Positions 16,982 to 64,000 of a stretch of 64,000 nucleotides of DNA are shown piece after piece. Origin of the DNA: Candidatus Binatia bacterium. Lineage in GTDB: Bacteria; Desulfobacterota; Binatia; DP-6. The notes beneath the pieces were generated by a model. It saw only the letters and a list, made by a program, of their open reading frames with translations. It had not been told where the DNA came from and ran no database searches. Where the stretch lies: NCBI GenBank assembly GCA_046327955.1, contig JAXLXP010000007.1:56029-120028 (forward strand), written 5' to 3'. The stretch's first letter is position 1, and every line of letters starts with the position of its first letter. The position numbers were made by a program, and so were the translations under genes.

Positions 16982-17078
16982 AACCGCCCCGTCGCGACAG
17001 GGGGTGCGGCCGAGGGACTTCACATAACTCGTAGCCTCGGGTGGGCGCCGCTGGACGGTGCTCCCCAAGGAGGTTGCG

Positions 17079-19279: not shown

Positions 19280-20292
19280 GCGCCGCGGCGCCCAATGCGC
19301 TTGCGCGGACCTTGCGGAGCTTCTTCGGAGATCATCTGCCGCGGGTCCGTGGGGTCAGCCCGCACACCATCCTCAGCTACCGGGACGCCTTCACGCTGCT
19401 CCTCCGGTTCCTCGCCGCGCACTGCGGGCGCGCCGTCGTCGACCTCGACCTCGTGGACCTCGAGCCCGACGCCGTGCTCACGTTCCTCCATCATCTCGAG
19501 GCCGAGCGCGGCAACGGCCCCTCGACGCGCAATGCGCGCCTCGCGGCCGTTCACGCGTTCGCCCGGTACGCGGCGACGAGCCAGCCTGAGCACCTCGAGC
19601 GCTGCCAGCGGTTGCTCGCCATCCCATTCAAGCGCGCCCGTCCCCGTGTGGTCGAGTACTTGGAGATGGAGGAGATGCGGGCGCTCCTCGCTGCGCCCGA
19701 CCCGCAGACCCCCGCCGGGCGCCGGGATCACGCGCTCCTGCTCGCGCTGTTCAACACGGGCGCCCGCGTGCAAGAAATCCTCGACGTCCGGCCGTGCGAC
19801 CTCCAGCTCGCCCGGCCGCTCCAAGTGCGGCTCCGCGGGAAGGGGCGTAAGGAGCGCGTCTGTCCCCTCTGGCCGCAGACCGCCGAGGTCTTCGCAGCGC
19901 TCCTCCGCGCGCAACGGCTCGCGCCCGACGCCATGCAGCCGCTCTTCCGCAGCGCGCGCGGCCAACCGCTGACCCGCTTCGGTGCGCGCTACCTCCTGCG
20001 CAAGTACGTCGCCCGTGTGCAATCGACGGTCCCGACCCTGACCACCAAGCGCGTGCACCCCCACACGCTGCGGCATACAACCGCCGTCCACCTGCTCCAG
20101 GCCGGCGTCGACCTCGTCACCATCAGCCACTGGCTGGGCCACGCCAGCGTCGAGACGACCAACCGCTACGCGGCCGTCGATCTCGAGATGAAGCGCGCGG
20201 CGATCGCGAAGGCCCATCCCGACGGCCTCGGCGACGTCAGCTCCGCCTGGCGGAGCGATGCCACGATCATGGACTGGCTGAAAGCCCTGTAA
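19276..20292 (+). CDS. ritC: Tyrosine recombinase, third of trio
   Basis: The ATG at 19276 overlaps the ritB stop (ATGA). ...GARVQEILDV...HTLRHTTAVHLLQAG...LGHASVETTNRYA. Confidence 0.85.
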   Translation: MSAAAPNALARTLRSFFGDHLPRVRGVSPHTILSYRDAFTLLLRFLAAHCGRAVVDLDLVDLEPDAVLTFLHHLEAERGNGPSTRNARLAAVHAFARYAATSQPEHLERCQRLLAIPFKRARPRVVEYLEMEEMRALLAAPDPQTPAGRRDHALLLALFNTGARVQEILDVRPCDLQLARPLQVRLRGKGRKERVCPLWPQTAEVFAALLRAQRLAPDAMQPLFRSARGQPLTRFGARYLLRKYVARVQSTVPTLTTKRVHPHTLRHTTAVHLLQAGVDLVTISHWLGHASVETTNRYAAVDLEMKRAAIAKAHPDGLGDVSSAWRSDATIMDWLKAL

Positions 20293-20348
20293 ACCGACCC
20301 GGTTATGTGGAGCTCTCGCCCCTCGAGTCCGCAGAATCGTGGCCCACC

Positions 20349-20389
20349 CGGCGGCGACGCCACATTACGAGGTGCTCCACATGAGTCGA
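20349..20389. repeat. RIT right inverted repeat (41 bp, perfect)
   Basis: CGGCGGCGACGCCACATTACGAGGTGCTCCACATGAGTCGA. Confidence 0.9.
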
Positions 20390-20885
20390 GGACGAGGAGC
20401 TGCACCTTGGCGAGGCGGCGCAGCGCGGTGAGGTAGGTGCCATCGGCGCGGGCCTGGGCCAGTTCATCATAGAGGCGCGACACGCGGCGGTAGGCGACGG
20501 TGAAGCCGTCCCGGCACGCCTTGTGGGCGAGCGCGCAGGCCACGTAGCTCTTCCCGACGCCGGTGGGGCCGGTGATGACCACGGTCTGGTGGGCGGCCAC
20601 CCAGCGGGAGGCGCTCAGCTCCTGCACGAGGGCCTTCGGGAGGCCGCGCGGGTGGCGGTAGTCGAGGTCTTCGACGCAGGCCGTGAGCTTGAGCTTCGCG
20701 GTCTTGAGGCGCGTGGTCAGCTTCCGGTTTTCGCGCGTGAGCCATTCCGCGTCGGCGAGGAGGCCCACGAGATCGAGCGGCGCGAGGAGCTCGCGGGGCG
20801 GCTGCGCTTGCCACTGGCGGAGCGCGGCGACCATGCCGTGGAGCTGGAGCGCGGTCAGTTTGTCGAGTGTGGGTTCGAGCAGCAT
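20385..20885 (-). pseudogene. istB: istB, 5' part
   Basis: AAGGAGG then ATG at 20885: MLLEPTLDKLTALQLHGMVAALRQW...VVITGPTGVGKSYVACALAHKA (Walker A)...LAKVQLLVLD, then the RIT end. Confidence 0.85.
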
Positions 20886-20982
20886 GGGGATCCTCCTTGG
20901 GCGCGGTGACGACCGCGCGGGTCGAGGGCTCGATGCCATCCCCCACCGCCGAGAGCCCGTGTCGGCGGCGGAGAGTGGCGCG

Positions 20983-22524
20983 TCAATGGTAGTACTTGGC
21001 GCCGCGGACGTTGGCGTGGAGCGGGAGCGGCGGGGGCTCGGCCTCGGTCGGCAGCGGCTCGGCGTCGCGATGATGACGGAGGATTGCGACGACGCTCTTG
21101 TACGAGCACGCGCGGAAGTGAAGCGCGCGGGCACAGGCCCGTTCGAGCCGCGCGCCCGGGTAGTGCTTGGCGAGCCGCATGATCCCGAGGCACGCCCGGT
21201 AGCCCTGCTCGGGGTGCGGCCGCTGCTCCATGATCGCGGCGAAGAGCGCGGCGGTGCCAGGGCCGACGGTGGCCCCCCACCCGATGAGCCGGGACGGCGT
21301 CCACTCCAGATGGGCCCGGTGCGCCGCCGGCATGTGCGCCGCCTCGGTGGTCGGGTGGTGGCGGATGTGGCTGCGCAGATGGCTCGCGACCCGACGGCCG
21401 TCGTGGAAGAGTTCGACGGTGGTCGCCGTCGCCCGCAGGTCGAGGACTTCGCCGCGGAGCTGGTACGGGACGCTGTAGTAGTGGTCCTCGAAGGCGACGT
21501 GGTAGTCGATACTCACCTTCGGGCGCGCCCAGACGGCGTAGACGTACGGCGTGGCCGGCAGCGGCCGCAGCGCGGCGCGTTCCACGGCCTCGAAGAGCTG
21601 GCGGCGCGACTGGCCCAGCCGGCGCAGTGGCCGGGCGTTCAGCCGCTCCTGCAGCGGGACGATGGCGTCGTGGAGGTCCGCGAGCGAGGGGAAGACGCGA
21701 TCGCGGAGGACCGCGAGGATCCACCGCTCCGCGAGGAGCACGGCCTGCTCGACCTTCGCCTTGTCGCGCGGCTTGTACGGCCGCGCCGGCAAGACCGCGG
21801 TGCCGTAGTGCTGTGCCAGCTCGGCGTAGGTCGGGTTGAGTTCCGGGTCGTAGTAGCACGGCCGCGCGACGCCGGCCTTCGTGTTGTCGGGCACCAGCGC
21901 CGCCGGCACGCCGCCAAAGTACCTGAAGGCGTTGACGTGGCAGGTGATCCACGTCGCCAAGTCCTGGTGGAGCACGGGCTCGACGTACGTGAGGTTGCTC
22001 GCGCCGAGCACCAGCACGAAGAGGACGGCGGTCGTTCGCGCGCCCGTGATCGGATCGACGAGCGTGAGCCCGTCGCCGCTGAAATCGACGAAGCCTTTCG
22101 CCCCGGCGCGGTGGGTCTGCCGCAGCGTCACGGGCAGCGTGCGCGCCCACACCGCGTAGCGGGCGCAGAACTGGCTGTACTGGTAGCCGTCGGGCTCGCG
22201 CTCCCGGTACTCCTGCCAGACGAGCAGCTTGGTCACGTGCGGGCGGTGCAGCTCTTGGTGGATCGCTGCCCAGTCGGGCTCGGGGCGGGCCCGCACCGGC
22301 TGCCCCTCGCTCGGAAAGAGCAGCCGGGTCAGCGCCGCATCGTCGTCGAGCTCCGGTGGTAACGGCCACACGAGCTTCGCGACCGCGATCCGGCCGAGAT
22401 AGCCGCTCACCGTGCTCACCGAGAGCCGACAGCTCCGGGCGATCGCCCGGGCCGGGAGCCCGACGTCCAGCCGGAGTCGGAGCACTTCGCGGAGTTTGCG
22501 CATGGGAATCCTCTCTGCCGCCAT
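20983..22524 (-). CDS. istA: IS21-family transposase IstA
   Basis: AGGAGG then ATG at 22524: MAAERIPMRKLREVLRLRLDVGLPARAIARSCRLSVSTVSGYL (HTH), followed by a DDE core. The track ORF starts 6 nt upstream at a GTG. Confidence 0.85.
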   Translation of the reverse strand: MAAERIPMRKLREVLRLRLDVGLPARAIARSCRLSVSTVSGYLGRIAVAKLVWPLPPELDDDAALTRLLFPSEGQPVRARPEPDWAAIHQELHRPHVTKLLVWQEYREREPDGYQYSQFCARYAVWARTLPVTLRQTHRAGAKGFVDFSGDGLTLVDPITGARTTAVLFVLVLGASNLTYVEPVLHQDLATWITCHVNAFRYFGGVPAALVPDNTKAGVARPCYYDPELNPTYAELAQHYGTAVLPARPYKPRDKAKVEQAVLLAERWILAVLRDRVFPSLADLHDAIVPLQERLNARPLRRLGQSRRQLFEAVERAALRPLPATPYVYAVWARPKVSIDYHVAFEDHYYSVPYQLRGEVLDLRATATTVELFHDGRRVASHLRSHIRHHPTTEAAHMPAAHRAHLEWTPSRLIGWGATVGPGTAALFAAIMEQRPHPEQGYRACLGIMRLAKHYPGARLERACARALHFRACSYKSVVAILRHHRDAEPLPTEAEPPPLPLHANVRGAKYYH

Positions 22525-22625
22525 CACCACCTCCTGGTGGCGGTAGGCGGGCGGGAATCCCCCGCGCCGTCAACGTGCCGGGTGACCGCCGCCGCGCGTC
22601 AGCCCGTCAGGCTGTTCGCACGGCC

Positions 22626-22705
22626 CGGAATCGGTGTTCGGCTTGCGTCGGAATGGGTGTTCGGCTTGCCCCGGAATCGGTGTTCGGAATGGCCCGGTGC
22701 ACGCA
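22626..22705. repeat. IS21-family right-end reiterated sites (3 direct copies, 23-bp period) plus terminal IR
   Basis: CGGAATCGGTGTTCGGCTTGC at 22626, CGGAATGGGTGTTCGGCTTGC at 22649, CGGAATCGGTGTTCGG at 22672, then ...GGTGCACGCA ending at 22705. Confidence 0.75.
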
Positions 22706-22711
22706 GACAGC
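22706..22711. repeat. Target-site duplication GACAGC (right copy)
   Basis: See 16557-16562. Confidence 0.75.
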
Positions 22712-22765
22712 CAGAGCGCGTCGGCATCCTCTTGGATGTCCACGTCGGGGACGTACCACCGTCCG
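22712..22765 (-). pseudogene. Hsp20 gene, 5' remnant
   Basis: The minus-strand translation next to the IS reads GRWYVPDVDIQEDADALW, the WxPxVDIxE motif of Hsp20. It joins in frame to LSTDMPG on the other side of the IS. No clean start codon lies upstream, so the remnant is degenerate. Confidence 0.5.
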
Positions 22766-22987
22766 GCGTTCCTTCCTCCGCCTGGAGCTCCTGCTTGTCC
22801 CGCATGCCTTGTTCCCCTCCCATGTTGCGGTCACGCCAGCTGAACTCGGCTTGGCCCCCGCGACCGGCCGGACCCGCAGCGTCATTCACGATCGTCACGT
22901 CGTGCTCATCGTGGTCGAGCTGACCGCAGTGCTGGCCGGCCGGTACTAGCCGGGCGAGGCGGGATGCGAGCCGACGGAAGGGCTATA

Positions 22988-24091
22988 CTATCGCTTCCGC
23001 TTTGATACCCCCGGCGAAGGCCTACGTCTGGTGCCTAACAATGACATTTCCCTGCTTTTGATCCACCTTGCGATCACGCCCTGATCACTGCCAAGTCGAC
23101 GACTGATGTCCCCGATGGACAGTTCTTCCGCGTAGAGTCGCACCGCTTCCGCCTTCCGTTCGCGATAGCCTTGGGTCCGACAAGCGGGCCGGCAGAAGCT
23201 CTTGTCAGCACGCGAGATCCCCGGCGAAAGCTCAAACCACCTCTGGCAGGCCTGGCACTTTCGATAGCGTCTATTGCCCGCGAGCGCGAGCGCAAACTGG
23301 ACCCACAGTGCGCCGAGGAGGTTGCCGGGAACCTGATGGATCGCCAGGTGGCCCTCGCGATCCCAAAGTAGACGAGAGTGTACTTGGGCCAAGTGCCGGT
23401 TGACGACCCGTTGAAGGTAGTACTGTGCGGGTTTTATGAGGTCACCGGGCGCAAACTCCGCTAGCAGCTCTGGAAAGACGCCATCGGTTGCAATATGCTC
23501 CCAGTGGGCCGTCCCTTCCTTGTCTGGCTCGCCGCTGTATTCAACCCCCGTCCGCCCGCGCCAATGAATGAAGCAACCCAGCCCCGGGATGTCCCTCTTT
23601 TGTACCAGGTCCCGAAGAAGCAGCGCCTCACGCATCGTGTGAATCTCAATGCGCCAGAGCTCGATCGGTTCTCCATGGCCTAACTGTCGGTCGCCGGATG
23701 AGTCTTGTTGCTTCAAATCGATGAGCGGCCCGTCGCGTCCCAACAACGAACCGTACTGATTGGCGAAGCCAAGCATCGATTCCTCGGTCGGGGCCAGCGC
23801 CGCGAAGGTCTGGAACAGCACCGTGTGGCTCCACAGCGGAGCGTAGCGGATGGCGGGGATCCCGCCCGTGCCCGATGGTATCCCGTCGGTCAGGAATAGC
23901 CTCGCCTTCGCTTCTTCCTCGGCGAGACAGTGGGTAGCGTGCTCTGTCTCGGTTGCATTTGGGCCGAGCGGCGGAGGCGCCTCAGGTTGATGAATCCGTT
24001 TCGTCGTAAGCCACCTGTAGCCGGCCTTGGGGACGGTCCATGCGAAGTCAAAGGCGTCCCAGCGGAGCTCATCCTGACCACAGTGACGCAT
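22988..24091 (-). CDS. Hypothetical protein with C-terminal Zn-ribbon (CQACQRWF...FCRPACRTQGYRERK) and HTH (IGDISRRLGSDQGVIARWIK)
   Basis: 367-aa ORF in a visibly lower-GC stretch, divergent from the terminase genes. No family recognised for the N-terminal ~280 aa. Confidence 0.6.
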   Translation of the reverse strand: MRHCGQDELRWDAFDFAWTVPKAGYRWLTTKRIHQPEAPPPLGPNATETEHATHCLAEEEAKARLFLTDGIPSGTGGIPAIRYAPLWSHTVLFQTFAALAPTEESMLGFANQYGSLLGRDGPLIDLKQQDSSGDRQLGHGEPIELWRIEIHTMREALLLRDLVQKRDIPGLGCFIHWRGRTGVEYSGEPDKEGTAHWEHIATDGVFPELLAEFAPGDLIKPAQYYLQRVVNRHLAQVHSRLLWDREGHLAIHQVPGNLLGALWVQFALALAGNRRYRKCQACQRWFELSPGISRADKSFCRPACRTQGYRERKAEAVRLYAEELSIGDISRRLGSDQGVIARWIKSREMSLLGTRRRPSPGVSKRKR

Positions 24092-24232
24092 ACGTGGCGA
24101 TTATATATCAGCTATGGCCGAAAGGGCAACAAATACTGGTTGCATAGACACGATTAAGATGCTACTAGCCGTCACATCTTATGACAGCCCAAATTGCGGG
24201 GCGACAGGTCCATCAAATCCACTACTAACGCT

Positions 24233-24763
24233 ATGCCCCGCACGTGCACCATCTGTCGGCATCCCGAACATGGGCAGATCGACGTCGCCCTCGTGTCTGG
24301 GCGCGGCACGCTTCGAGGCTTAGGTAACACCTATGCCCTCTCGGCTTCCGCCCTGCGCCGCCACCGGGCCGCCCATCTACCCGAGGTCCTGATCAAGGGG
24401 AAGTCGCTCGACGACATCGCCACCGCAGAGTCGCTGGTCGATCAGGTCCGAACGCTCAGGGCCCGCATCCTCGCTCTCCTCGCCAAGGCCGAGACCGACG
24501 GCGACCACAAGACGCAACTCGCCGCTCTTCGCGAGCTGCGCGCGCTCGCGGAACTCGAAGCTCGCGGCGCCGATCGCGACGCGACTGTGATTCATGTGTC
24601 CGTCGTCCAGCAATACGTTCACCGCGTCATCGAGGTTGTCCGTGAGTTTGTGCCGCCCGAGCACTACGATGAAGCGATCGCACGAATCCAGGCAGCGGCC
24701 CACCGCGAGCCGGGCGACGTGACTCCGAGCCGCCCCATCCTGCCAGGCACCGGTAGCAACTGA
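24233..24763 (+). CDS. Phage small-terminase-like / DNA-binding protein (Zn-finger CTICRH plus coiled coil)
   Basis: ATG at 24233: MPRTCTICRHPEHGQIDVALVSGRGTLRGLGNTYALSASALRRHRAAHL. Its position immediately upstream of the large terminase supports the call. The start is uncertain (TTG at 24194 in the track). Confidence 0.45.
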   Translation: MPRTCTICRHPEHGQIDVALVSGRGTLRGLGNTYALSASALRRHRAAHLPEVLIKGKSLDDIATAESLVDQVRTLRARILALLAKAETDGDHKTQLAALRELRALAELEARGADRDATVIHVSVVQQYVHRVIEVVREFVPPEHYDEAIARIQAAAHREPGDVTPSRPILPGTGSN

Positions 24764-24797
24764 ACGCGGGAAGCTCACATCCGGAGGGGGAGGGAAA

Positions 24798-26903
24798 ATG
24801 AGGAAGCTTCCGGACGTCCATGGGAATGCGAAGCCTGCCAACCTGCGACAGCTCGCCCGACTGTCGGAGCTGACACGCCTCGCGGCTACCGCGACCAGCG
24901 CAGACTCCCGCGGGGTGGAAACCGCTCGCCAGCTAACCTTCCTGGACTGGGTCATTCGCGGCAGCTTCGTGGCGGACCGCGAACGGGTCAACTTCGCCGT
25001 CTGGCGCTACCTGCGTGCGATCTACGGGGCGGTGCCCAAGGACCCGACGGGTCTCGACATGGTGATCATGAAGCCGTCGCAGGCGGGCGCGACCATCTTC
25101 GGCATGCTCTTCTGTCTGTGGCTCACGCTGCGGATGCGGTGCCAGGGCGCCTACTTCCTGCCGACCGCCGACATGGCGCTCAAGTTCAGCCAGAACCGCT
25201 TCATCCGCCTCGCGCGGGATAACGACCCGATTCACAAGCTGATGGGCGACCCGGCGAGCCCCCATGAGCACCGGATCGTCGACGAAGGCTCCGCGAGCGT
25301 GCGCCGGATTCTCCAGAGCATTCTCTATTTCAGCTACATGGGAGGGGCCATTTCGACGGAGTCACTCCCCCTCGACTTCCTCGTGCTCGATGAGGTCCAG
25401 GAGATGCTCCTCGAGGATATCCAGAAGGCTGAGGAGCGCCTCTCTGCCTCGACGCTGCGCGCGGTGCTCCGCATGAGCACGGCGAACTTTGCCGGCGCCG
25501 ACGTGCACTACTACTACGAGCGGAGTGATCAGCGGGAGTTTCACACGCGCTGCCGCTGCACGTGCGAGAAGTGCGGCAACCCGGGCATCGTGCTCACCGA
25601 GTGCTGGGATTCCCGGCTCGGGCCGCTCTGCATCAAGGATGAGGGCGGCGCCGTGTACTACCAGTGCCCGCGCTGCACCATGGTCCTCGAGAACGTGCAG
25701 GACGGCGCGTTCTACCCCCACAATCCGGGTGCGCGGCGCATCGGGTTCCACTGGGGGCAGATGCTCTCGCCACGGCAGAGCGCGCGCGACATCCTGGAGA
25801 AGTGGCGCAACAGCCCCGACACGGGGACGTTTTACCGCCGCGTGCTGGGGCTGCCGTACGCCGACCCGGCCACGCTCCCGGTGACGCAGGCGCACCTCGC
25901 GGCCGCGCAGCGGCCGGAGCTGCGCTGGGGACTACCCGCGGTGCCGCGCGCGCTCGACGGGACGTTCATGGGCGTCGACCAGATGGGCCAGGTGAACTAC
26001 TGCGTCCTGAAGGGCCGGGACGCGCAGACGGGGCGCCAGCAGCTCCTCCATCTTGAGGTCATCCAAGCCGAGGACCCTTGGGAGAGGTGCGCGGCGCTGA
26101 TGCACGAGTACCGCGTGACCATCTGCGCGACGGAGGCGCTCCCGAATTTCAACGAGGCGTTCCGGTTCGCGAAGCGCTTCAACGGCAAAGTGTTCGTGGT
26201 CGACTACGCGGACCTAGCTGACGAGCTGGTGCTCTGGGGCGACCGCCCGAAGGACAAGGTGACGGTGCGGCGGACCGACCAGGAGGCGCGCCTCCGCTAC
26301 GTGGCGCGCGTCGACCAGTTCCGGATGATGAGTTGGTCGCTCGGGCGCTGGTCGAATCTGCTCGTCGACACGCCCGACGCCCGGACGCTCCTGCAGTCGG
26401 TGCGCACGCCCGAGGGCGTCGCCGTCCGCCAGGTCTGCCGCGACCTCTTCTGGTTACATCTCCAACGCGTGGCGCTGGTCACCGAGCTGCGCGAGGGGAA
26501 GACGGACGAACGCCGCTTCCGGCGCGCGGTCAAGAAGGTCGGCATCGACCCGCACTTTGCGTTCGCGAACATGCTCTGTGATGTCGCCTGGGTGCGGGCC
26601 CACGGCACCGAGATGCTCCTCGGGACCCAGGACACGGGGCGCATTTTGATCGATCCCCCAGGACCGCTGCGGAATACGTCCTACCTGGAGCAGATTGTGG
26701 AGGGGTTGCCTGAGGTCTTTGCCGGCGCGGGCATGCGGATGCTCTCGCCGATCAGCCGCGACGCGAACGCGCCAGCGTGCGGCAGCTGCTGGAACCGGGA
26801 CAAGGAGACGAATTACTGCCGCGCGAGGTACTGGACCGTGCAGCCCGAGCAACCGCCGTGCGCGGCGTACGCGCCGGAGGAGGAGGCGCCGACGTATCCA
26901 TGA
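24798..26903 (+). CDS. Phage terminase large subunit, GpA (lambda-type) family
   Basis: GGAGGGGGAGGG RBS. 701 aa. Walker A-like MKPSQAGATI, Walker B FLVLDEVQE, and an internal Zn-ribbon CTCEKCGN...YQCPRC typical of Terminase_GpA. Confidence 0.8.
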   Translation: MRKLPDVHGNAKPANLRQLARLSELTRLAATATSADSRGVETARQLTFLDWVIRGSFVADRERVNFAVWRYLRAIYGAVPKDPTGLDMVIMKPSQAGATIFGMLFCLWLTLRMRCQGAYFLPTADMALKFSQNRFIRLARDNDPIHKLMGDPASPHEHRIVDEGSASVRRILQSILYFSYMGGAISTESLPLDFLVLDEVQEMLLEDIQKAEERLSASTLRAVLRMSTANFAGADVHYYYERSDQREFHTRCRCTCEKCGNPGIVLTECWDSRLGPLCIKDEGGAVYYQCPRCTMVLENVQDGAFYPHNPGARRIGFHWGQMLSPRQSARDILEKWRNSPDTGTFYRRVLGLPYADPATLPVTQAHLAAAQRPELRWGLPAVPRALDGTFMGVDQMGQVNYCVLKGRDAQTGRQQLLHLEVIQAEDPWERCAALMHEYRVTICATEALPNFNEAFRFAKRFNGKVFVVDYADLADELVLWGDRPKDKVTVRRTDQEARLRYVARVDQFRMMSWSLGRWSNLLVDTPDARTLLQSVRTPEGVAVRQVCRDLFWLHLQRVALVTELREGKTDERRFRRAVKKVGIDPHFAFANMLCDVAWVRAHGTEMLLGTQDTGRILIDPPGPLRNTSYLEQIVEGLPEVFAGAGMRMLSPISRDANAPACGSCWNRDKETNYCRARYWTVQPEQPPCAAYAPEEEAPTYP

Positions 26904-27103
26904 CCGCCAGAGCGTGGGGTCCGCAGGTCACGACGGAGCCGACGACGAGCAGGGGGGAGGCGTAGGTCAGGACGAGAGCTAACCTCAATGTGACAGAAGC
27001 CAGCACTAGCAAAGTGGCATGGTAGGGACAAAAGGGGCTTCCGTTGTGGTAGAGTCGCGGTCGCGAAGCCAGCGAAACCACCCTTAACGAAAGGCCATTC
27101 CCA

Positions 27104-27307
27104 ATGCTGTGGAGAAAAGCGGATTTGCGGGGCCGGGTCAATGGGGATCTGACACTCCGGTTCGGGCACGGCGGGCTGACGTCTTACGCGGGACTCGAGT
27201 TCGTGCGGCGGTACTTCGACGCGCTCGGCTTGGTGCGGCTGGTGCGGCGCGAGTTGGCGACCGCCGTGCCGCGCACCGACTTCAGGGTAACCGCGATGGT
27301 ACTGTGA
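27104..27307 (+). pseudogene. N-terminal fragment of an IS1380/IS4-superfamily DDE transposase
   Basis: Only 67 aa: ...DLTLRFGHGGLTSYAGLEFVRRYFDALGLVRLV, the typical transposase N-terminal pattern. No DDE domain follows. Confidence 0.45.
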
Positions 27308-27322
27308 GCCGTCGCCCGCCGC

Positions 27323-27646
27323 TCACCGTTCCTCGGCATAGCGCACGCTAGGGAGCCCCTCCGCGCCGCGACCTTCCGGCGTGAGATCGAGGACACCCCA
27401 CAGTGGCCAGAGCAGATCGACGTGACGAGGGTGTTGTCCCGCCTCCGGCCGGAGGAAGAGCAGCTCGGTGGCGGAGAAGTGCTCGATGCGATCGCCGACC
27501 CTGCGGAAGACGTTCAGGTTCGGGATCCGCTCGCCCGCATCGTTCTCCCCGAAGCAGTCGCGACTGAAGGTGTTCCGGCTCGACGACAAGAGGCGCAGAT
27601 GCGTCCAGCCACCTTGCCGGCCCCAGTCGTGGATCGCTGCCAGCAT
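27323..27646 (-). pseudogene. DUF899 (thioredoxin-like) protein, C-terminal fragment
   Basis: LAAIHDWGRQGGW...SSSRNTFSRDCFG...NLNVFRRVGDRIEHF...LDLTPEGRG follows the DUF899 C-terminal pattern. An in-frame TAG lies directly upstream and an IS5-family element is ~100 bp away. Confidence 0.5.
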
Positions 27647-27743
27647 GGTCTATATGGACCCAGCTGGCCATCGGCGCGACGCCGACCTGCGAGCGTGGCT
27701 TGCGCGCGCGGTGCGCCTCGCCCGGGCGCTGCCACCGAAGTAG

Positions 27744-29067
27744 CTAGCAGGTTGCTGAAGAACGCGTCGATGACGGCACTTGCATGATGAAAGAGCGGCG
27801 GCGCGACGACCTCAGCGGCGGGGAGATGGGGTTCCGGGGCGGCGTTGGGCAGCCGGTTTCGGCTCCGGCCGACACCCCGGCCACCGTCTCATGCTACCGC
27901 GATCTCGGGCATCAGCTTCGCCATCCGCAACAGGTCGTAGGCCGCCCCCACGAGGTAGGCCCAGAAGCCGGTGCGTTGCACGCCGCGGTAGCGTGTTTTC
28001 CGCAAGCCCCCGATCGTCTTCCCCCACCCGAAGATCTCCTCGACCTTCTTGCGGCACCGCTGGCTGAGCTGGTAGCCCGCGTGGCGCAGGGTCCGCCAAT
28101 CGAGGGTGGAATCCCGCCGCGTCGTGATGTTCGGCGCCACGTGCGGGGTAATCCCTTCCGCGCGCAGGCCGGCCACGAAGGCGGCCGTGTCGTAGGCCTT
28201 GTCCGCGCCGAGCGTCCGCGGCCGAATCCCGTTGCGGCGCTGCCGCCGGACCATCGTGAGCGCCGCCTCCCGTTCGGCCGTCCCCGTCGCGCGGGTGACC
28301 AGGATGTCGACGCACAGGCCGTGGCGGTTCTCCATGAGGACATGCCCCGCGAAGGCGAGCTTCGCCTCCTTGCCGTTGCCCTTGCGCGCCAACAGCGCAT
28401 CACTGTCGGTGATCGACGCATGCGTCGCGTTGCTGCGCCGCTCCCCGTGAAAGTTCACGGTGGGATTGCCGGGATCGTCGGGGGGCGGCCGGTCCTCGGC
28501 CCGCTCGCCCTTCGGGCGGAAGCTCTTGAGCGACGCCCACGCCTCAATCAGCGTCCCGTCCACGGTGAAGTGCTCGGCCGACAGCAGGTGGGCGGCCTTC
28601 GCCTGCTGCACCACCCCCTCGAAAAACCGCCGCGCCACGTCGGCGCGCAGCAGCCGCTCCTTGTTCTTGGCGATCGTCGAGGCGTCGAAGGGGACGGTGT
28701 GGAGGTCCAGGTCGAGAAACCATTGGAAGAGGAGGTTGTACTGCAGCTGCTCGCAAAGCTGCCGCTCGCTGCGAATGCTGTAGAGCGCGATCAGCAGGCA
28801 CGCCTTGAGCAACCGCTCGGGCGGGACCGACGGGCGGCCGCGCTCGGCGTACATCCGCTCGAACACGGGCGAGAGCCGGGCGAGTTCCGCATCCGCCAGC
28901 GCTTTGATCCGCCGCAACGGATGGTCCGCCGGAATCCGGTGCTCCGCGCTCACCACGCTCAACATCGTCCGCTGCCGCTCCACCTCTCCCCGCATCCCGG
29001 CCTCCTCCTCGGAAACCCTATAGATCCGCGCGCGGGCGAAGTCGAGCGTTTTTCAGCAGCCTGCTAG
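27744..29067 (-). mobile_element. IS5-family insertion sequence (single DDE transposase)
   Basis: 22-bp IRs CTAGCAGGTTGCTGAAGAACGC / CTAGCAGGCTGCTGAAAAACGC (2 mismatches). The terminal CTAG could equally be a 4-bp palindromic TSD. Confidence 0.85.
27889..28995 (-). CDS. IS5-family transposase
   Basis: 368 aa: ...HPLRRIKALADAEL...RPSVPPERLLKACLLIALYSIRSERQLCEQLQYNLLFQWFL...GADKAYD... Confidence 0.9.
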   Translation of the reverse strand: MRGEVERQRTMLSVVSAEHRIPADHPLRRIKALADAELARLSPVFERMYAERGRPSVPPERLLKACLLIALYSIRSERQLCEQLQYNLLFQWFLDLDLHTVPFDASTIAKNKERLLRADVARRFFEGVVQQAKAAHLLSAEHFTVDGTLIEAWASLKSFRPKGERAEDRPPPDDPGNPTVNFHGERRSNATHASITDSDALLARKGNGKEAKLAFAGHVLMENRHGLCVDILVTRATGTAEREAALTMVRRQRRNGIRPRTLGADKAYDTAAFVAGLRAEGITPHVAPNITTRRDSTLDWRTLRHAGYQLSQRCRKKVEEIFGWGKTIGGLRKTRYRGVQRTGFWAYLVGAAYDLLRMAKLMPEIAVA

Positions 29068-35788: not shown

Positions 35789-37188
35789 GCCCAGCCCGCG
35801 CCGTAGCGTTGCTCCTCGCCGCGGTCACCCCGGCTCTGGCAGGAGAGGCTGCGTCGGCCGGCAGCTCGCCCCACGAGATGCCGCTGCCGGCCGTCCAGAT
35901 GCGGCTCATCGAGGAAGGGAAGTCCCTGCCCATCGATCTCGCGACCGGGCTTGCGCTCGCGCAGGCGAACAACCTGGACATCCTCGCGGCGCGGGCTCAT
36001 CTCGCGGACGCGCGCGGGGTGCGGAACGAGTCGCTCGGCTACCTCGTCCCGGAGTATCACGGCTCGTTCACCGCCAACCGGATCGACGGGGAGATCCAGG
36101 CCTCGTTCGGTAACCTGGAGCGGCACACGTTCAATACCTTCATCCCGGCAACCGGCGCTGCCCTCACCCTCAACCCGGGGCGGGTAGTGTTCGACGCGCT
36201 CGCCGCCCATCGCAGCCTCGCCGCCGCCGAGCACGACAGCGAACAGGTGACGCAGGACGTCCTTGCCACCGTGGCCCAGCAGTACTTCGCCCTCCAGGAG
36301 GCGCAGGCACGCATCAAGATCGCCGAAGAGGCGCTGGCCGCCTCGCGGCAGCTGGCCCGCGTCGGGCGCGACCGCGAGGCGGAAGGCGCGGGTCTCAAGG
36401 TGGACGTGGCGCGGGCCGAGGCCCGTGCCGCCGCCGACGAGGTGCGACTCGCAGAGGCCGAAAGGAGGTTGCGCAACGCCTCGGTACGACTCGCCCTCAC
36501 GCTGAAGACCGATCCGGCGGTGATGCTCTTCCCGCTGGAGACCGTCGTCCGGCAGCGGGCGATCGTCGACCCCACGCGGCCACTCGAAGAGCTGACCACG
36601 CGAGCTGCTGGGAGTCGACCCGACCTCGCCGCGCAGCTTCGGCGGGTGACCGCCGCGGAGAGCCGGCACACGGCGACCTGGGCGGGTGCTGTCGGCCCGA
36701 CGATCGCCGGATCGGTGGAAGAGAGCGCCGTCGGAGAGCGTGTCAGCAACCTAGGGGAGCGTCAGATCTACGGCGGCTTCATCGGCTTCCGCCTCTCGCC
36801 GGCATCGATCGGCCAGGTTCAGGCGGCGAAGGCCCGGGTCGAGCAGGCGCGCCTCGCGGAGGAGCGCCTCGCGCAGCAGGTTACCGGCGACGTGATCATG
36901 GCGCGCGAGAGCGTGCTGACCGCCGGGGAGCAGATCGAGGCCGCGCTGGGGGGCCTCCGCGCGGCGGAGGCGGCCTTCGAGCTGAGCCAGGTGCGCTTCA
37001 AGGGGGGCGTGGGTATCGGACTGGAGGTACTTGACGCCCAGGCCGCGCTCAGCGAGGCACGGTCCAACGTGGTCACCGCGATCGTCACCTACGACGTGGC
37101 GCAGGTGGCGCTCCTGCGCGCGCTGGGCGGTGTCTCCGTGCCGGCACTCCTCCAGCAAGCCGATGCGGGTGGGCCCCCGTCGCCGTGA
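35785..37188 (+). CDS. TolC-family outer-membrane efflux protein
   Basis: 467 aa with a signal peptide and two repeated OEP halves. Confidence 0.85.
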
Positions 37189-39464
37189 GGGCCATGACCG
37201 CGCGCTTGCTCGCCGCCCTGGTGATCTTGGGCTTCGGCGTCGCCTGCAGTGACCCAACGCACGACCCGCCGCCGCCCGCGATCGGGCCGCTCCCGGGGGC
37301 CGAATCGTTCAGCTCGAAACTGCAGGCCGAGCTCGCCGCCGCCCTCGCCGCGAAGGGAGCCGCCTATCACCCCCACACGCGCCACCTTCGTCCCGACGGC
37401 ACCCCTCGCTACACGAACCGCCTGATCCTCGAGTCGAGCCCGTATCTACTCCAGCACGCCCACAACCCCGTCAACTGGTACCCCTGGGGCGACGAGGCGT
37501 TCGCGCACGCGGCGCGCGAGTCGAAGCCCGTGCTCCTCAGCGTCGGCTACTCGACGTGCCACTGGTGCCACGTGATGGAGGACGAGTCCTTCGAGGACGA
37601 GGAGATCGCGACCTACCTCAACCAGCACTACGTCGCCATCAAGGTCGACCGGGAGGTCCGCCCCGACGTGGATGACGTCTACATGAGTGTCGTGCAGATG
37701 CTGACGGGGAGCGGTGGCTGGCCGATGACGGTCTGGCTGACGCCGGAACGCCAACCCTTCTCCGGTGGCACGTACTTCCCGCCGCGCCAGTTCCTCAGCG
37801 CACTCCAGCAGCTTCGCCAAGCGTTCGATGTCGAGCCCTTCCGCGTCGCCGAGCAGGCGGGCGAGATTACCCGCCGGCTACAGCAGTCGGCGGAACGCCC
37901 CGGCGGCGAGGCGTTGCCCGACGCCACCGTGCTCCGTCGCGCGTTCGACGGCTTCGCCACGACCTTCGACGGGGCGAACGGTGGGTTCGGGCGCGCCCCC
38001 AAGTTCCCGCGCCCACCGGACCTGGAGCTTCTCCTCCGTTACCACCGTCATGTGGCGAGCGCGCGGGCCCTCGACATGGTGACCCTGACGCTCGAGAAGA
38101 TGGCGGCCGGGGGTATCCACGACCACGTCGGCGGTGGCTTTCACCGCTACGCGACCGACGCGACGTGGCAGGTGCCGCACTTCGAGAAGATGCTCTACGA
38201 CAACGCCCAGCTCGCCGCCGTCTACCTCGCCGCCTACCAGGTCACCAAACGCGACGAGTTCGCCGACATGACCCGCGACATACTCGACTACGTCGGCCGG
38301 GAGATGACGGCGCCCGAGGGTGGCTTCTACGCAGCGACCGATGCGGACAGCGAGGGCGCAGAAGGGAAGTTCTTCGTCTGGACCCCGGCCGAGGTCCGCG
38401 CCGCGCTCGACGGCCCGCACGCCGACGTCGTCCTCGCCGACTATGGCGTCACCGACAAGGGGGACTTCCACGGCAAGAACATCCTCCACGTCACGGCACC
38501 GCTTCCCGAAGTGGCGTCGAAGCTCGGGCTCGAGCCTACCCGGCTCCGCCAGCTTCTCGACGAAGCGCGCGCGGAGCTCTACGCCGTCCGCGCACGGCGC
38601 GTGGCGCCCCACAAGGACACGAATATCCTCGCCGCCTGGAACGGCCTCATGATCTCGGCCTTCGCCCGCGCCGGCTCGGTCCTGGGGAATCCCGGCTACA
38701 TCGGGCGGGCGACCGCGGCGGCACGGTTCGCCCTCGAGCGGATGCGGGCCGACGGCCGCTTGCGACGGAGCTTCGCCGGGGGCACGGCACACGAGGAAGC
38801 GTTCCTCGACGACTATGCCTTCGTGGCTGCCGGACTCCTCGACCTCTACGAGGCGACCTTCGAGCTACGCTGGCTGCGCGAAGCCATCGCACTCCAGGAC
38901 GTCCTCGTGCGCGACTTCTCGGATGCAGACAAGGGCGGATTCTTCCTGACCGGGGCGCGCCGGGAAGTGACGCTCAGCCGGCAGAAGCCGTACTACGATG
39001 GGGCCACCCCGTCCGGGAACGCCGTTGCCGCGCTGAACATGCTCAGACTCGCCGAGTTCACCGCCGACGACCGGTGGCGTGGCCGGGCCGAGGCGACGCT
39101 CCGCACCTTTGCCCTCATCCTTCAGCGCACGCCAGGGGCGGCGCCCGCGCTCCTCGCGGCCCTCGACTTCCGCCTCGACCGGCCGAAGGAGATTGTGATC
39201 ATCAGCCCCGCCGGCCAGACCGACGGCAGTCGCCCCCTGCTCAACACCGTGCACGCTGCCTACGTGCCAAATCACGTCCTTACGGTCACGACCGAGGGGG
39301 AGGAGCAGGCCCGCCAGCGCAGCCTCATCCCCTTGGTGGCCGAGAAGCTGGCGCTCCACGGAACGGCGACGGCCTATGTCTGCGAGCAGAAGGTCTGCTC
39401 GCTTCCGACCTCGGATCCTGCCGTGCTCGCCGCTCAGCTGGCGAAGGTCCATCCACTCGAGTAG
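37185..39464 (+). CDS. Thioredoxin-domain (DUF255, YyaL-like) protein fused to a six-hairpin glycosidase-like domain; lipoprotein
   Basis: [80 protein letters not shown]. Lipobox ILGFGVAC. Confidence 0.85.
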
Positions 39465-39521
39465 CGTCTGTTCCTCTCACGCGCATTGCAACGCCTGTCC
39501 GCCTGGGACTAGGAGACAATC

Positions 39522-39563
39522 ATGACGAACAGGCACGACGTCGACAGCTGGCGTTTCCTGTGA
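39522..39563 (+). CDS. 13-codon leader ORF (MTNRHDVDSWRFL) coupled to the downstream GTG start
   Basis: A strong AGGAGA lies 5 nt upstream of the ATG. Its TGA overlaps the GTG at 39560 (cctGTGAacc). Confidence 0.3.
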   Translation: MTNRHDVDSWRFL

Positions 39564-40015
39564 ACCCGACTACCCAACTCGCCGAATCCGCGCCCGCCAT
39601 CGCCGCCGCCATGCGAGCCGAGCAGGTGCACGGCGCGGTACTCACGCCCGTTTGACCGGACTGCTGCCGGTCCGTTGGACTGGTCGCACGCGTGATCGAG
39701 GAGGCGGGGGTGCCAACCGTCGTTTTGAACATGATGCCCGCTTACCAGCCCTCGGTCGGCGCGCCGCGCGTTGCCGCGATCTCATATCCTTTCGGCCGCC
39801 CGTACGGGAACGTCGGCGATGCCGACTTGCAGCGCGCGGTGCTCCGGGCGGCGCTCGGGGTGCTCGAGACGGCGCGCACGCCGGGCGAGGTCGTCCATCT
39901 CCCCTTCCGCTGGCCCGAGGACCCGAAGGCAACAAACTGGGCGCCCGACAAGCCCTCGCCGATCACGGCGATGATGCTGAAGGCTCGGCGGTGCCCCTGG
40001 CGCATGCGGTCCTGA
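39560..40015 (+). CDS. Candidate selenoprotein: GrdB C-terminal-domain-like small protein with in-frame UGA (39653-39655) in a U-P-D-C redox motif
   Basis: Read through the TGA: VNPTTQLAESAPAIAAAMRAEQVHGAVLTPV-U-PDCCRSVGLVARVIEEAGVPTVVLNMMPAYQPSVGAPRVAAISYPFGRPYGN... This follows the glycine reductase protein B pattern around its Sec (U-x-x-C...E-x-AGIP-V...VGA-x-R...P-x-G-x-P). A hairpin lies 11 nt after the UGA. A paralogue is at 63642+. Confidence 0.55.
39667..39683 (+). promoter_or_regulatory. SECIS-like hairpin (7-bp stem CCGGTCC/GGACTGG, loop GTT)
   Basis: Starts exactly 11 nt after the TGA. A G and U are in the apical loop. The same architecture occurs in the paralogue. Confidence 0.45.
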
Positions 40016-57603: not shown

Positions 57604-57653
57604 CCCCACATCACCACCCCCCGCACCGTCTACCACGTCTTGACCCCTACCGG

Positions 57654-59168
57654 TCGGAGTAGGGACCGCGGTCGCCCGCGGCCCCTCCACAGATCCGGAC
57701 GTGCGGCATTACCGCATCCGGCTCCTGCCTTGGGTGACGACGCCAAAGCGGACGAGGGGATACGGGTGACAGATGCGGACGGGCGGAAGCCACCGGTCGA
57801 TGTAGCGTTGCATCCGGCGCCACGGCAGGTGGTGCTGCTGGCTGCGGCGACGCAGGGCGCGCCACCACAGCCGTCCCACTGCTTGGCGGAAGGCCCCGAG
57901 CGCCGAGCCGTTCATCGGGACGCCGTAGTACCGCATATGGCCCCCAACAGCGGCCCGGAGTAGAGATTGGCCAGGAGCGGGCTGATGCTGCCCCCCTGGA
58001 CTGTACCGCTCTCCCTCTGTGTTCGCTTCCCCTCCTCCAGCACGCCGGCCCACAGCCATTTCTGGATGAGGCGCACGACGCGCCGGTCCCCCACACGGTG
58101 CTCGAGAAACTTCACCAGCCATCCGTGGTCGAGGGTATCGAAGAAGCCACGGATATCGGCATCGAGCACCCAGTTCACCCTCCTCGTCGAGAGCCCGACC
58201 GTGAGCGCGTCCAGAGCCTGATGCGGATTGCGTCGCGGTCGGAATCCATACGAGAAACCGAGGAAGTCGCCCTCGTAGATGGCGTTGAGCACCTCAACGA
58301 CGGCGCGCTGGACGACCTTGTCTTCCAGCGCGGGAACGCCGAGCGGCCGCAGCCGCCCGTCCGCCTTCGGGATGTACACTCTACGCACTGGCTTCGCCCG
58401 GTACGCCCCCCGTTGGAGCCGGCCGGAGAGGTCCTGCAGATGCGCTTCCAGATTCTCTCCGTAGTGCCGCCACGTCTCGCCATCGATGCCAGCAGCCGCA
58501 TCACGTTTGAGCTCCCAGTAGGCTGCCCGCAACCGCTCGATGGCGTACACGTGGTGAAGGAGCGCGGTGAACCGCTGCTGCCTGTCTCTCCTCGCTGCCT
58601 GCCGTACCCGCTCGAGCGCGCTGAGCGTGCTTCCCCGGCTCTGCGTCCGGCGCGCGTTACGCTCGGGCGAGTTCCCCTTGGCCAGCCCCCTTCCCTCCAC
58701 CACCTCCGCGGCCGGTTCCTCGGCGTTGTTCGGTGGCTTCCCGGGTACTACGAGGCTGTCCGACTTCCCGCGTCCGTCCATCATCGGCGTACGTCCTCGG
58801 ACTTCCCGATGCGGCCGGCGGTCCCCTCGACCGCCGGCAGACGCGGGACCTCCCGGTTCCCGTGCGAGGTGCATCCGTACATGCGTGGGGTCTTCGACCG
58901 CGCGGGGTCCTGGGACGCCTCGCGCTCCCGGCGCCCCCGGTCTGGCCTTCCGCGTCTATCCACCGCGTCGGCACCCCGGAGTACCCGCCGCTTGCGCAGC
59001 GGGGTAAGAGATTTCGCGGCTCAATACCCAGCCTGCACGTACCCCTGCCAACGCTTCACCTCCGCCCTCACGGGCGACGGCGCATGACTCAGCGTCAGAG
59101 CGGATCGCTACTCCTTTCTCTGTGTGGCTCTTTCATCCACGACACCTCGCCGGTTTGTACCGGCGCAC
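57654..59168 (-). mobile_element. Group II intron with internally deleted reverse-transcriptase/maturase ORF
   Basis: 5' end GTGCGCC (59168 downward). Domain V GAGCCGGATGCGGTAATGCCGCACGTCCGGATC (57692-57724). Domain VI helix GGGGCCGCGGGCGACCGCGGTCCCTAC with a bulged A. 3' end ...CCGAC at 57654. The IEP frame (58784 downward) reads MMDGRGKSDSLVVPGKPPNN...LRPLGVPALEDKVVQRAV...GGSISPLLANLY, then jumps frame to ...GHMRYYGVPMNGSALGAFRQAV; the YADD region is missing. Confidence 0.8.
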
Positions 59169-63552: not shown

Positions 63553-63611
63553 TAGGCTCCCTTCACGGTTCCGGTCGCCTGCTCCTCGCCGATCAGTTTG
63601 ATCGTCGCCAT
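63552..63611 (-). CDS. 19-codon upstream ORF (MATIKLIGEEQATGTVKGA), possibly a CMD/AhpD-like N-terminal remnant or a coupling leader
   Basis: Strong GGGAGGAGGAA RBS 4 nt before the ATG at 63611. Its TAA overlaps the ATC at 63552 (TAATC). Confidence 0.3.
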   Translation of the reverse strand: MATIKLIGEEQATGTVKGA

Positions 63612-63641: not shown

Positions 63642-64000
63642 TCACCGTCGTGGCACCGGCCCCGGCATCATCGCGAGCGCCGGCACCGCGGTTGCAAGGC
63701 AGAGCTCCAGCAGTGCCCGCAGGATCGCTCGCTGCCGTGGCGGGTCGTCCAACGCTCCGAGGGGGTAGCCCAGGGGATAGGGCACCGCGAGCGCACGGGG
63801 CGGCCGCACCTTCCTGGTGATCTCCGGGAGCAGCGTCAACGAGGCGGTCACGATCCCCCGTCGCTCCAGCTCCACCTGGACCAGGCCAACGACCTGGTGA
63901 CACATGGGTCACACCGGCACCAGGAGGGCCACGTCGACCTCGTCGTCCACCAGGAGTGTCGCGGCCTTCGGCGCCGTGTCGCGGATCAGCCGGCCTGGTG
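63642..64000 (-). CDS. Candidate selenoprotein, GrdB C-terminal-domain-like, paralogue of 39560-40015; in-frame UGA at 63909-63911; 5' end outside the window
   Basis: Minus strand: ...[100 protein letters not shown]... The track shows only the part after the TGA. Confidence 0.55.
63880..63898 (-). promoter_or_regulatory. SECIS-like hairpin (ACCAGGTC/GGCCTGGT, loop GTT)
   Basis: Starts 10 nt after the TGA. Loop and position match the hairpin at 39667-39683. Confidence 0.45.

Follow-up and report, generated by a model that had tools for sequence, protein, structure and literature searches.

A probable recent pseudogene of the stand-alone PrdB-like selenoprotein family with an intact UGA codon and a SECIS-type hairpin in a Candidatus Binatia bacterium

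The stretch of DNA analyzed in our study, referred to as the window, comprises 64,000 nucleotides of a Candidatus Binatia bacterium and has a G+C content of 69%. It harbors two genes related to selenoprotein B, one at 39522-40015 and a paralogue at the window end (Table 1). For the first of them the original prediction had described an open reading frame of 107 amino acids (39692-40015) which can be extended through an in-frame TGA back to a GTG at 39560. This arrangement is indeed present, and read-through of the TGA yields ...VHGAVLTPV-U-PDCCRSVGLVARVIEEAGVPTVVL... with the motif U-P-D-C-C spanning 39653-39667. The same frame stays open far 5' of GTG 39560 as part of a spurious high-GC open reading frame starting at 38165. 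Therefore, the GTG is an arbitrary choice of start codon. The ancestral start, ATG 39522, lies in a different frame, and the short peptide encoded from it matches the N-termini of intact orthologues, namely MMGTHEVDSWRFLPPRL in L081 and M..IEVDSWRFMPRRL in L002. L081 is a close relative (89% amino-acid identity) with an intact gene of 284 amino acids and selenocysteine (Sec) at residue 172. At the end of the short frame GTG 39560 and the TGA at 39561-39563 overlap as GTGA. The conserved element further upstream is possibly part of the ancestral promoter or 5' leader, as judged from its alignment with L081.

Table 1. Position and strand of the features of the two PrdB-like genes in the window
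Feature	Position	Strand	Evidence
Conserved upstream element TTGCAACGCCTGTCCG	39486..39501	+	Aligns with TTGCAACGCCTCTCCG 5' of the intact orthologue in L081
Shine-Dalgarno sequence GGAG of the ancestral start	39512..39515	+	Read from the sequence; TAGGAGA also before the ATG of L081
Remnant of the ancestral 5' end, ATG and 13 codons (MTNRHDVDSWRFL), then premature TGA from the frameshift	39522..39563	+	Matches orthologue N-termini
Deletion junction; 382 nt (127 codons + 1) absent relative to L081, equal to orthologue residues ~14-140	39560..39563	.	Comparison with L081
Pre-Sec coding segment kept (..TTQLAESAPAIAAAMRAEQVHGAVLTPV), in frame of the downstream ORF	39564..39652	+	In-frame alignment with all orthologues
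Predicted UGA selenocysteine codon of U-P-D-C-C	39653..39655	+	TGA in 84/84 sequences at this column
SECIS-type hairpin CCGGUCC-GUU-GGACUGG, 11 nt past the UGA	39667..39683	+	98.2% of cells paired, 81 distinct sequences
Post-Sec coding segment	39656..40015	+	Identity of 85-90% with close relatives
Intact paralogue, second PrdB-like selenoprotein gene, 5' part beyond the window end	63642..64000	-	tblastn, 38% identity, TGA aligned
Predicted UGA selenocysteine codon of the paralogue (U-P-M-C)	63909..63911	-	Same alignment column as the TGA of the first copy
SECIS-type hairpin of the paralogue, CCAGGUC-GUU-GGCCUGG, 11 nt past the UGA	63881..63897	-	Sequence and alignment

The first copy is preceded by an RND efflux operon and a gene for a DUF255 thioredoxin-domain protein, and it is followed by a ClC channel gene with a TrkA-C domain. 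None of the Grd and Prd partners, including grdA, grdC, grdD and grdE, was found among the annotated neighbours in the window. In these points the original prediction was right, as it had named the ClC gene as the next gene and had noted that Grd partners were missing. Neither a ClC gene nor an intact DUF255 gene stands beside the orthologue in any of 82 related loci, a DUF255 remnant being present in L081 only. From the absence of ClC in the related loci it follows that its adjacency carries no functional signal and is incidental. No cluster of neighbouring genes recurs in more than nine of the 82 related loci, the most frequent ones being SDR, luciferase-like and P450 proteins, and no PrdA-like gene was detected in these neighbourhoods. 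Moreover, no sel genes were found among the 20 window ORFs scanned, the window, which covers 64 kb of a contig of 324.6 kb, contains no tRNA, and tRNA-Sec was detected neither in the window nor in 60 related loci. That the genome decodes Sec is indirectly supported by the paralogue, as a further intact gene with UGA and SECIS in this assembly.

The evidence for Sec at this position comes from an alignment of 84 sequences, which consists of 80 loci obtained in a scan of GTDB species genomes, two close metagenomic relatives and the two window copies. The 80 loci belong to metagenome-assembled genomes of Myxococcota, 'Deltaproteobacteria', Binatia, Acidobacteriota, Gammaproteobacteria and others. 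Intact orthologues are present in complete genomes such as CP070734.1 and OZ245002.1. All 84 sequences have TGA in the Sec column with conserved coding sequence on both sides, and the motif LAPV-U-PDCCRSVGLVAR is near-invariant among the orthologous loci. In the 16 loci whose upstream region was read, the frame upstream of the UGA is open and strongly conserved over about 170 codons, back to a start of the form M..(E/R)VD(S/P)(W/F)RF.., which makes the intact protein as large as PrdB or slightly larger. In L012, L019 and L078 the upstream frame breaks about 35-55 codons 5' of the UGA. Full-length homologues with 43-46% identity (P0139, P0148, P0156, P0202 and P0203) have Cys in the Sec column and read C-P-L-C-C or C-P-D-C-C. 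The locus thus shows a UxxC motif with in-frame UGA and Cys in the non-Sec homologues, as in the selenoprotein B superfamily. The original prediction had proposed such Sec/Cys alternation as a check, and it had named a sense codon other than Cys or Sec, or a real stop without conservation upstream, as findings that would speak against Sec; neither of these was seen in the sequences compared. A search of 5.8 billion proteins resulted in 225 matches, and the 120 matches listed are about 86-130 amino acids long and start at or just after the UGA. Among the matches listed, the UGA is the precise point at which the family's open reading frames in the databases are split, leaving one piece of about 171 and one of about 100 amino acids. 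Judged by these comparative data, the TGA at 39653-39655 can be regarded as a genuine Sec codon.

In E. coli fdhF the minimal upper stem-loop of the SECIS is located 11 nt after the UGA and carries G and U in its loop. At our locus the TGA is followed by an 11-nt spacer (39656-39666), the 5' arm CCGGTCC (39667-39673), the loop GTT (39674-39676) and the 3' arm GGACTGG (39677-39683), just as had been predicted. On the window sequence alone this hairpin is unremarkable, and its significance comes from the comparative data. The single-sequence fold was not significant (z = -0.21). The window contains 1240 TGA triplets, of which 3 are followed by a hairpin of 7 bp with a 3-nt loop at +11 compared to about 1.9 expected, and two of these three triplets are the UGAs of the two PrdB-like genes. 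Across the alignment the 7-bp helix is paired in 98.2% of the cells (81 distinct sequences), whereas slid registers reach at most 68%. Two base pairs show compensatory changes, one from G-C to A-U by the synonymous exchanges CGG>CGA and CTG>TTG and the other from U-A to A-U or G-C. The observed covariation score was matched by none of 500 shuffles. The codons that form the stem are near-fixed (TGC in 83/83, CGG in 76/81, TCC in 73/81, GGA in 77/83 and CTG in 77/82), and their synonymous entropy is 0-0.47 bit versus 0.8-2.3 bit in most flanking codons of equally conserved residues. Arg and Gly in the flanks reach 2.3 and 1.9 bit with mixed codon usage, unlike the Arg and Gly of the stem; the one outlier in the flanks is a Glu at -10 with 0.33 bit. 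The G and U of the loop (G28, U29) are invariant in 84 of 84 sequences, while the loop codon GUN is unconstrained at its third base.

The features of a bacterial SECIS, i.e. the spacing, G and U in the loop and a structure that is kept across orthologues, were all found in this family. These data indicate that selection maintains the hairpin as an RNA structure at the spacing canonical for SECIS elements, as would be expected for a SelB-type SECIS embedded in coding sequence. RNAalifold proposed an alternative fold which pairs the UGA region. We set it aside for the 7-bp hairpin because the latter is paired in 98.2% of the cells and falls on just those codons in which synonymous changes are rare; the alternative fold seems less probable to us, and the exact structure of the hairpin appears supported rather than proven. 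The element resembles the fdhF-type SECIS in the spacing of 11 nt, the short GC-rich stem, the invariant G and U of the loop and its location inside the coding sequence. It differs in that the loop is only 3 nt as drawn, no bulged U was identified and there is no match in Rfam. The loop would measure 5 nt if the closing C-G pair opens, as in eight variants with TCG-GTC. Rfam searches of the whole window at gathering thresholds and of 39500-39800 at E <=10 gave nothing at the locus, a spurious lncRNA match being the sole result. For the stand-alone PrdB-like subfamily the alignment of 84 sequences provides a clean SECIS model supported by covariation.

The paralogue with the same Sec context and hairpin, which had likewise been pointed out in the original prediction, was recovered at the window end. 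It reads within the window on the minus strand from 63998 to 63642, and its TGA falls into the same column as the TGA of the first copy. In its hairpin one pair is changed on both sides relative to the first copy (U-A to G-C) and two are changed on one side, and all of them still pair. A full version of the paralogue gene in L084 encodes 248 amino acids with Sec161, and the N-terminal 160 amino acids match PF07355 in precomputed data. NCBI names the N-terminal fragment of the paralogue 'glycine/sarcosine/betaine reductase selenoprotein B family protein [Candidatus Binatia bacterium]'. The family of the paralogue includes many Cys forms with PVCPMC at 47-57% identity.

The original prediction had called the first copy GrdB-like. 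This was correct in so far as the locus belongs to a Sec family of the GrdB/PrdB superfamily, but the best profile is that of PrdB and the motif is U-P-D-C-C instead of UxxCxxC. The 151-aa read-through fragment matched PrdB TIGR04483 best among the NCBIfam profiles (E 4.8e-20, 72 bits, profile positions 125-234 of 238), while the GrdF, GrdH and GrdB profiles were much weaker. The intact orthologue matched TIGR04483 with E 3e-36 and 125 bits at positions 17-234 of 238. Both scores stay below the equivalog cutoff of TIGR04483, which is 300 bits. TIGR01918 gave 25.7 bits with the fragment and 40.5 bits with the intact orthologue L081 versus a cutoff of 65.45, and TIGR01917, the GrdB equivalog, gave 25-40 bits versus a cutoff of 602. 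A scan with PF07355 (GRDB), which had been suggested as a check, gave no match in Pfam on the 151-aa fragment because this profile models only the pre-Sec part, which is the part deleted here. Intact L081 was matched with 25.3 bits at residues 31-169 (cutoff 22). Of the pre-Sec N-terminal half that belongs to a complete selenoprotein B domain, residues ~14-140 are missing in the first copy. A prd operon with PrdA proprotein and PrdC is not present around it, the neighbours in the window being the DUF255 thioredoxin-domain protein and ClC. Based on profile, motif and Sec/Cys alternation we assign the family by sequence to the GrdB/PrdB selenoprotein B superfamily, of which it is a stand-alone PrdB-like branch. 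It does not represent a PrdB or GrdB equivalog, since the scores are far below the cutoffs, a prd or grd operon is lacking and UPDCC takes the place of UxxCxxC. Both the literature and database annotation already contain this family. JGI lists homologues of both window copies as 'D-proline reductase (dithiol) PrdB', and one Cys homologue bears the name 'glycine/sarcosine/betaine reductase selenoprotein B family protein' at NCBI.

According to the original prediction the first copy was a naturally short module resembling the C-terminal domain of GrdB. This has to be revised, as the orthologues examined are about 240-290 amino acids long, with about 284 in the intact orthologues, and the first copy is a frame-shifted remnant that starts at ATG 39522 and has lost 382 nt. 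The 5' leader, the Shine-Dalgarno sequence and the first 13 codons are conserved, and past the junction homology to L081 resumes in another frame at ..TTQLAESAPAIAA... In a tblastn search with the N-terminal half of L081 only residues 1-17 and 137-171 found a match in the window, which thus does not contain the missing N-terminal part at another place. Where L081 and L082 have the ancestral stop ..GGG TGA, the first copy reads ..CGG TGC. Due to the loss of this stop the frame carries an extension of nine codons (..RCPWRMRS) into the former 3' UTR, up to 40013-40015. Branch dN/dS, obtained from three-point comparisons of NG86 distances, was about 0.36 for the first copy versus about 0.12 for L081 and about 0.09 for L082, and about 12 amino-acid changes are specific to the first copy compared with about 3 in L081. 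The 136 retained codons are 85-90% identical to those of relatives and contain no further stops or frameshifts. Therefore, the loss is either very recent or the fragment is partly constrained. Programmed frameshifting at the junction was also considered and rejected, as there is no slippery heptamer at ..CGU UUC CUG UGA.. and the arrangement occurs in no orthologue. We consider it probable that a stand-alone PrdB-like selenoprotein gene has decayed at 39522-40015 and that this copy is most likely a pseudogene of recent origin.

The extent of the loss can be seen in the AlphaFold2 model of the Cys homologue P0156, which forms one compact alpha/beta body (pLDDT 93, pTM 0.92). In this model Cys173, the equivalent of Sec, is located between the strand 166-170 and the helix 174-189. 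Mapped on it, the deletion takes out five of nine strands and four helices. Neither a single sequence nor a profile found a match among the PDB sequences, and Foldseek with the P0156 model likewise gave none in the PDB at E <=0.001.

Several other readings of the locus have to be weighed against a pseudogene. If the TGA were an ordinary stop, the 107-aa frame would represent a small gene of its own, and the hairpin would have arisen by chance in a GC-rich genome. The non-significant fold of the single sequence and the nearly chance rate of +11 hairpins in the window fit this idea, and gene callers annotate the downstream piece only. Nevertheless, it is hardly credible in view of a TGA kept in all 84 sequences, protein conservation that runs straight across it, Cys in the Sec column of homologues, synonymous suppression specific to the stem and a PrdB profile that aligns across the position. 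A different concern is that the deletion and the frameshift may be artefacts of assembly or sequencing, or may belong to a minor variant in the population, so that the organism would have an intact 284-aa gene at this place. The source is a metagenome-assembled genome, and the two genes also occur as a further unusual chimera with a deletion, P0103, in a 531-bp ENA contig. On the other hand, the junction is identical in L083, a contig of the Logan assembly of SRR26348421 that was assembled by a different method and shows 100% identity over 1489 bp, although it derives from one SRA run and may share the reads of the source contig. The similarity flanking the deleted segment is short and imperfect (about 7 nt), which is too little for a repeat collapse. 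Because of the identity of L083 across the junction and this scant flanking similarity an assembler artefact is unlikely as the source of the deletion. Besides, the independent loss of the stop codon and the raised dN are not effects of assembly, and we regard artefact and population variant together as quite improbable.

The truncated gene could also be functional. Ribosomes would end the leader at the UGA at 39561 and reinitiate at GUG 39560, resulting in a 151-aa Sec-containing C-terminal half that serves as a minimal U-x-x-C redox module, which comes close to the model of the original prediction. Two observations indeed count against a pseudogene: the GTGA overlap of stop and start at 39560-39563 could allow termination-reinitiation, and the branch dN/dS of 0.36 lies below 1 and is not neutral. 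Moreover, UGA, SECIS and downstream frame are preserved in full, and the retained part is free of further lesions and holds the strand-Sec-helix unit together with three more beta-alpha units. We still consider a functional truncated gene unlikely. No other short form occurs in the 82 other loci or among the database open reading frames listed, all of which indicate the long form, and the deleted part is strongly conserved and packs with the remainder into one body in the model (pTM 0.92). In addition, GTG 39560 is not preceded by a Shine-Dalgarno sequence, the nonsynonymous rate is 3-4 times that of the sister branches and the ancestral stop is gone. That the 13-codon leader with its GTGA overlap drives reinitiation and that the resulting 151-aa 'half-PrdB', with its strand-Sec-helix and three beta-alpha units, acts as a free-standing selenol/thiol redox module seems very doubtful to us. 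If true, it would be a natural experiment showing that the C-terminal half of the selenoprotein B fold is autonomous.

Taking the first copy as a recent pseudogene, the following sequence of events can be proposed. The intact gene encodes a protein of about 284 amino acids which forms a single alpha/beta body, with Sec in U-P-D-C-C placed where a beta-strand ends and a helix begins. The UGA would be read as Sec by means of the 7-bp hairpin 11 nt downstream with its invariant G-U loop, presumably in a SelB-dependent manner. By analogy with PrdB and GrdB, Sec may attack the substrate and form a selenenyl-sulfide with the neighbouring Cys, which would then be reduced by a dithiol donor. The internal deletion of 382 nt removed residues ~14-140 and shifted the frame, so that translation from the conserved Shine-Dalgarno sequence and ATG 39522 would reach TGA 39561 after 13 codons and stop there. 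In sequence the C-terminal half, with UGA and SECIS, is intact yet severed from its start codon, and the copy has presumably lost its function. The intact paralogue at 63642-64000(-) would be the working PrdB-like selenoprotein gene of this region.

The locus itself holds little new biology, as it most likely represents a decayed member of a family that was included in counts from marine metagenomes as early as 2005 and bears names at JGI and NCBI. It illustrates a trap for selenoprotein prediction, since an intact UGA, a SECIS and a good downstream open reading frame do not guarantee a functional gene. The deletion was exposed because the N-terminus was checked against orthologues. The family is abundant and has no PrdA partner, conserved neighbourhood, solved structure or structural neighbour in the PDB, and the question of its substrate was already known. 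Our literature search for 'PrdB-like' and 'GrdB-like' proteins found nothing relevant to the stand-alone subfamily.

Compared with clostridial PrdB, the family shares the best-scoring profile, which covers nearly its whole length on the intact orthologue, and the UxxC Sec motif in the corresponding region. In contrast to clostridial PrdB, it is extended at the C-terminus by about 25 amino acids (PGEVVHLPFxWPEDPK..W.P.EPSPI), neither a PrdA pyruvoyl proprotein nor PrdC is located nearby in the window or the 82 related loci, and the hosts are metagenome-assembled genomes of Binatia, Myxococcota and Gammaproteobacteria rather than Stickland-fermenting Clostridia. GrdB, GrdF and GrdH, the selenoprotein B subunits that are specific for the substrate in the glycine, sarcosine and betaine reductases, are homologous to the family over the last ~200 residues of their profiles of ~431-435 amino acids (PF07355, TIGR01917, NF040794 and NF040795), the Sec region included. 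They differ from it in that the E-values are 1e-5 to 1e-11 with scores far under the cutoffs, and in the U-P-D-C-C motif of the family. GrdB has about 430 amino acids and carries UxxCxxC (PMC13188914). Clostridial D-proline reductase contains PrdB as its selenoprotein subunit of 26 kDa (Kabisch et al. 1999, as cited in PMC1088965 and PMC13188914). In reviews, PrdB (TIGR04483) and GrdB (PF07355) appear among the established selenoproteins of the UxxC type (PMC13188914, PMC9312934).

The likeness extends to the environmental proteins reported under the same name. In the Sargasso Sea 'proline reductase PrdB' (UxxC, pfam07355) ranked third in abundance among the known selenoprotein families with 42 genes (PMC1088965), and in GOS 235 Sec and 110 Cys forms of PrdB were counted (PMC2398784). 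The intact orthologues and the paralogue resemble these proteins in matching the same profiles, in the UxxC Sec motif and in a length of about 250-290 amino acids, a likeness drawn from these features. Furthermore, Sec and Cys forms coexist, the hosts are environmental bacteria and a conserved prd operon neighbour is lacking. The first copy differs from them in that it is without residues ~14-140, frame-shifted and deprived of its stop codon, and it is therefore best regarded as a probable remnant rather than a working member of this widespread family.

The junction between the DUF255 gene and the prdB-like gene seems, on comparison of the sequences, to be prone to rearrangement in this lineage. 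In the window the DUF255 gene is intact (37185-39464) and lies beside the internally deleted prdB-like copy. In L081, the locus of a close relative, the prdB-like gene is intact and DUF255 is reduced to a 76-aa C-terminal remnant (L081 5061-5288) which follows a P450 gene. Moreover, in the database protein P0103, encoded on a 531-bp ENA contig, the N-terminus of DUF255 is joined directly to the last ~67 PrdB-like residues, and this PrdB-like part begins at ..FGRPYGNVGDAD.

Mobile-element genes are clustered at 17058-28995 of the window, a region that looks like a plastic island, and such island-like plasticity is consistent with gene decay nearby. The window also harbours a group II intron, for which Rfam matched domains D1-D4 (RF02005, 157 bits, 58888-59133) and the catalytic domain (RF00029, 57653-57726). 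Between the two matches lies an ORF of ~320 aa (57912-58874, minus strand), presumably the intron-encoded protein.

Mobile-element genes and group II intron of the window
Feature	Position	Strand	Source
Tyrosine integrase	17058-18299		
Tyrosine integrase (second)	19276-20292		
Mu-type transposase with rve domain	20983-22530	-	
gpA-like terminase large subunit	24798-26903		
DDE IS transposase	27889-28995	-	
Group II intron	57653-59133	-	Rfam matches at two parts

Variation was also observed in the hairpin that follows the UGA. In the orthologue alignment A4 a linked TCG-GTC variant is carried by eight orthologues, in which the closing pair of the hairpin is opened and a GGUCG loop results. A third TGA of the window that is followed at +11 by a hairpin of 7 bp with a 3-nt loop (62432, minus strand) is located inside the Na+/H+ exchanger gene, and this hairpin is probably due to chance.

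The AF2 model of P0156, the 293-aa homologue with Cys at the Sec column, was of high confidence (pLDDT 93, pTM 0.92). A Foldseek comparison of this model with the PDB gave no match at E <= 0.001, and a sequence search of the PDB found no relative. Within the PDB copy searched there seems to be no solved structure that represents the selenoprotein B (PrdB/GrdB) fold.

The closest full-length homologue of the intact paralogue, P0242 (70% identity), has Arg-Arg at the position of Sec-Pro (PVRRTCHE vs PVUPMCHQ). A change from Sec to Arg is reachable by one base (TGA to CGA or AGA), and P0242 may represent a copy that has decayed or been re-purposed. A 19-codon ORF (MATIKLIGEEQATGTVKGA, then a stop; 63552-63611, minus strand) sits in the interval that separates the paralogue from the Na+/H+ exchanger gene; it is possibly a truncated remnant, and we take it to resemble the N-terminus of AhpD-like/CMD-domain proteins, another selenoprotein-prone family. 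In L082 (938-2281), a further close relative's locus, the intact prdB-like gene is followed by an SBP56 gene and then by a gene for an SCO1/SenC-MauG-type protein, an arrangement seen at this one locus only; SBP56 belongs to the selenium-binding protein 56 / methanethiol oxidase family.
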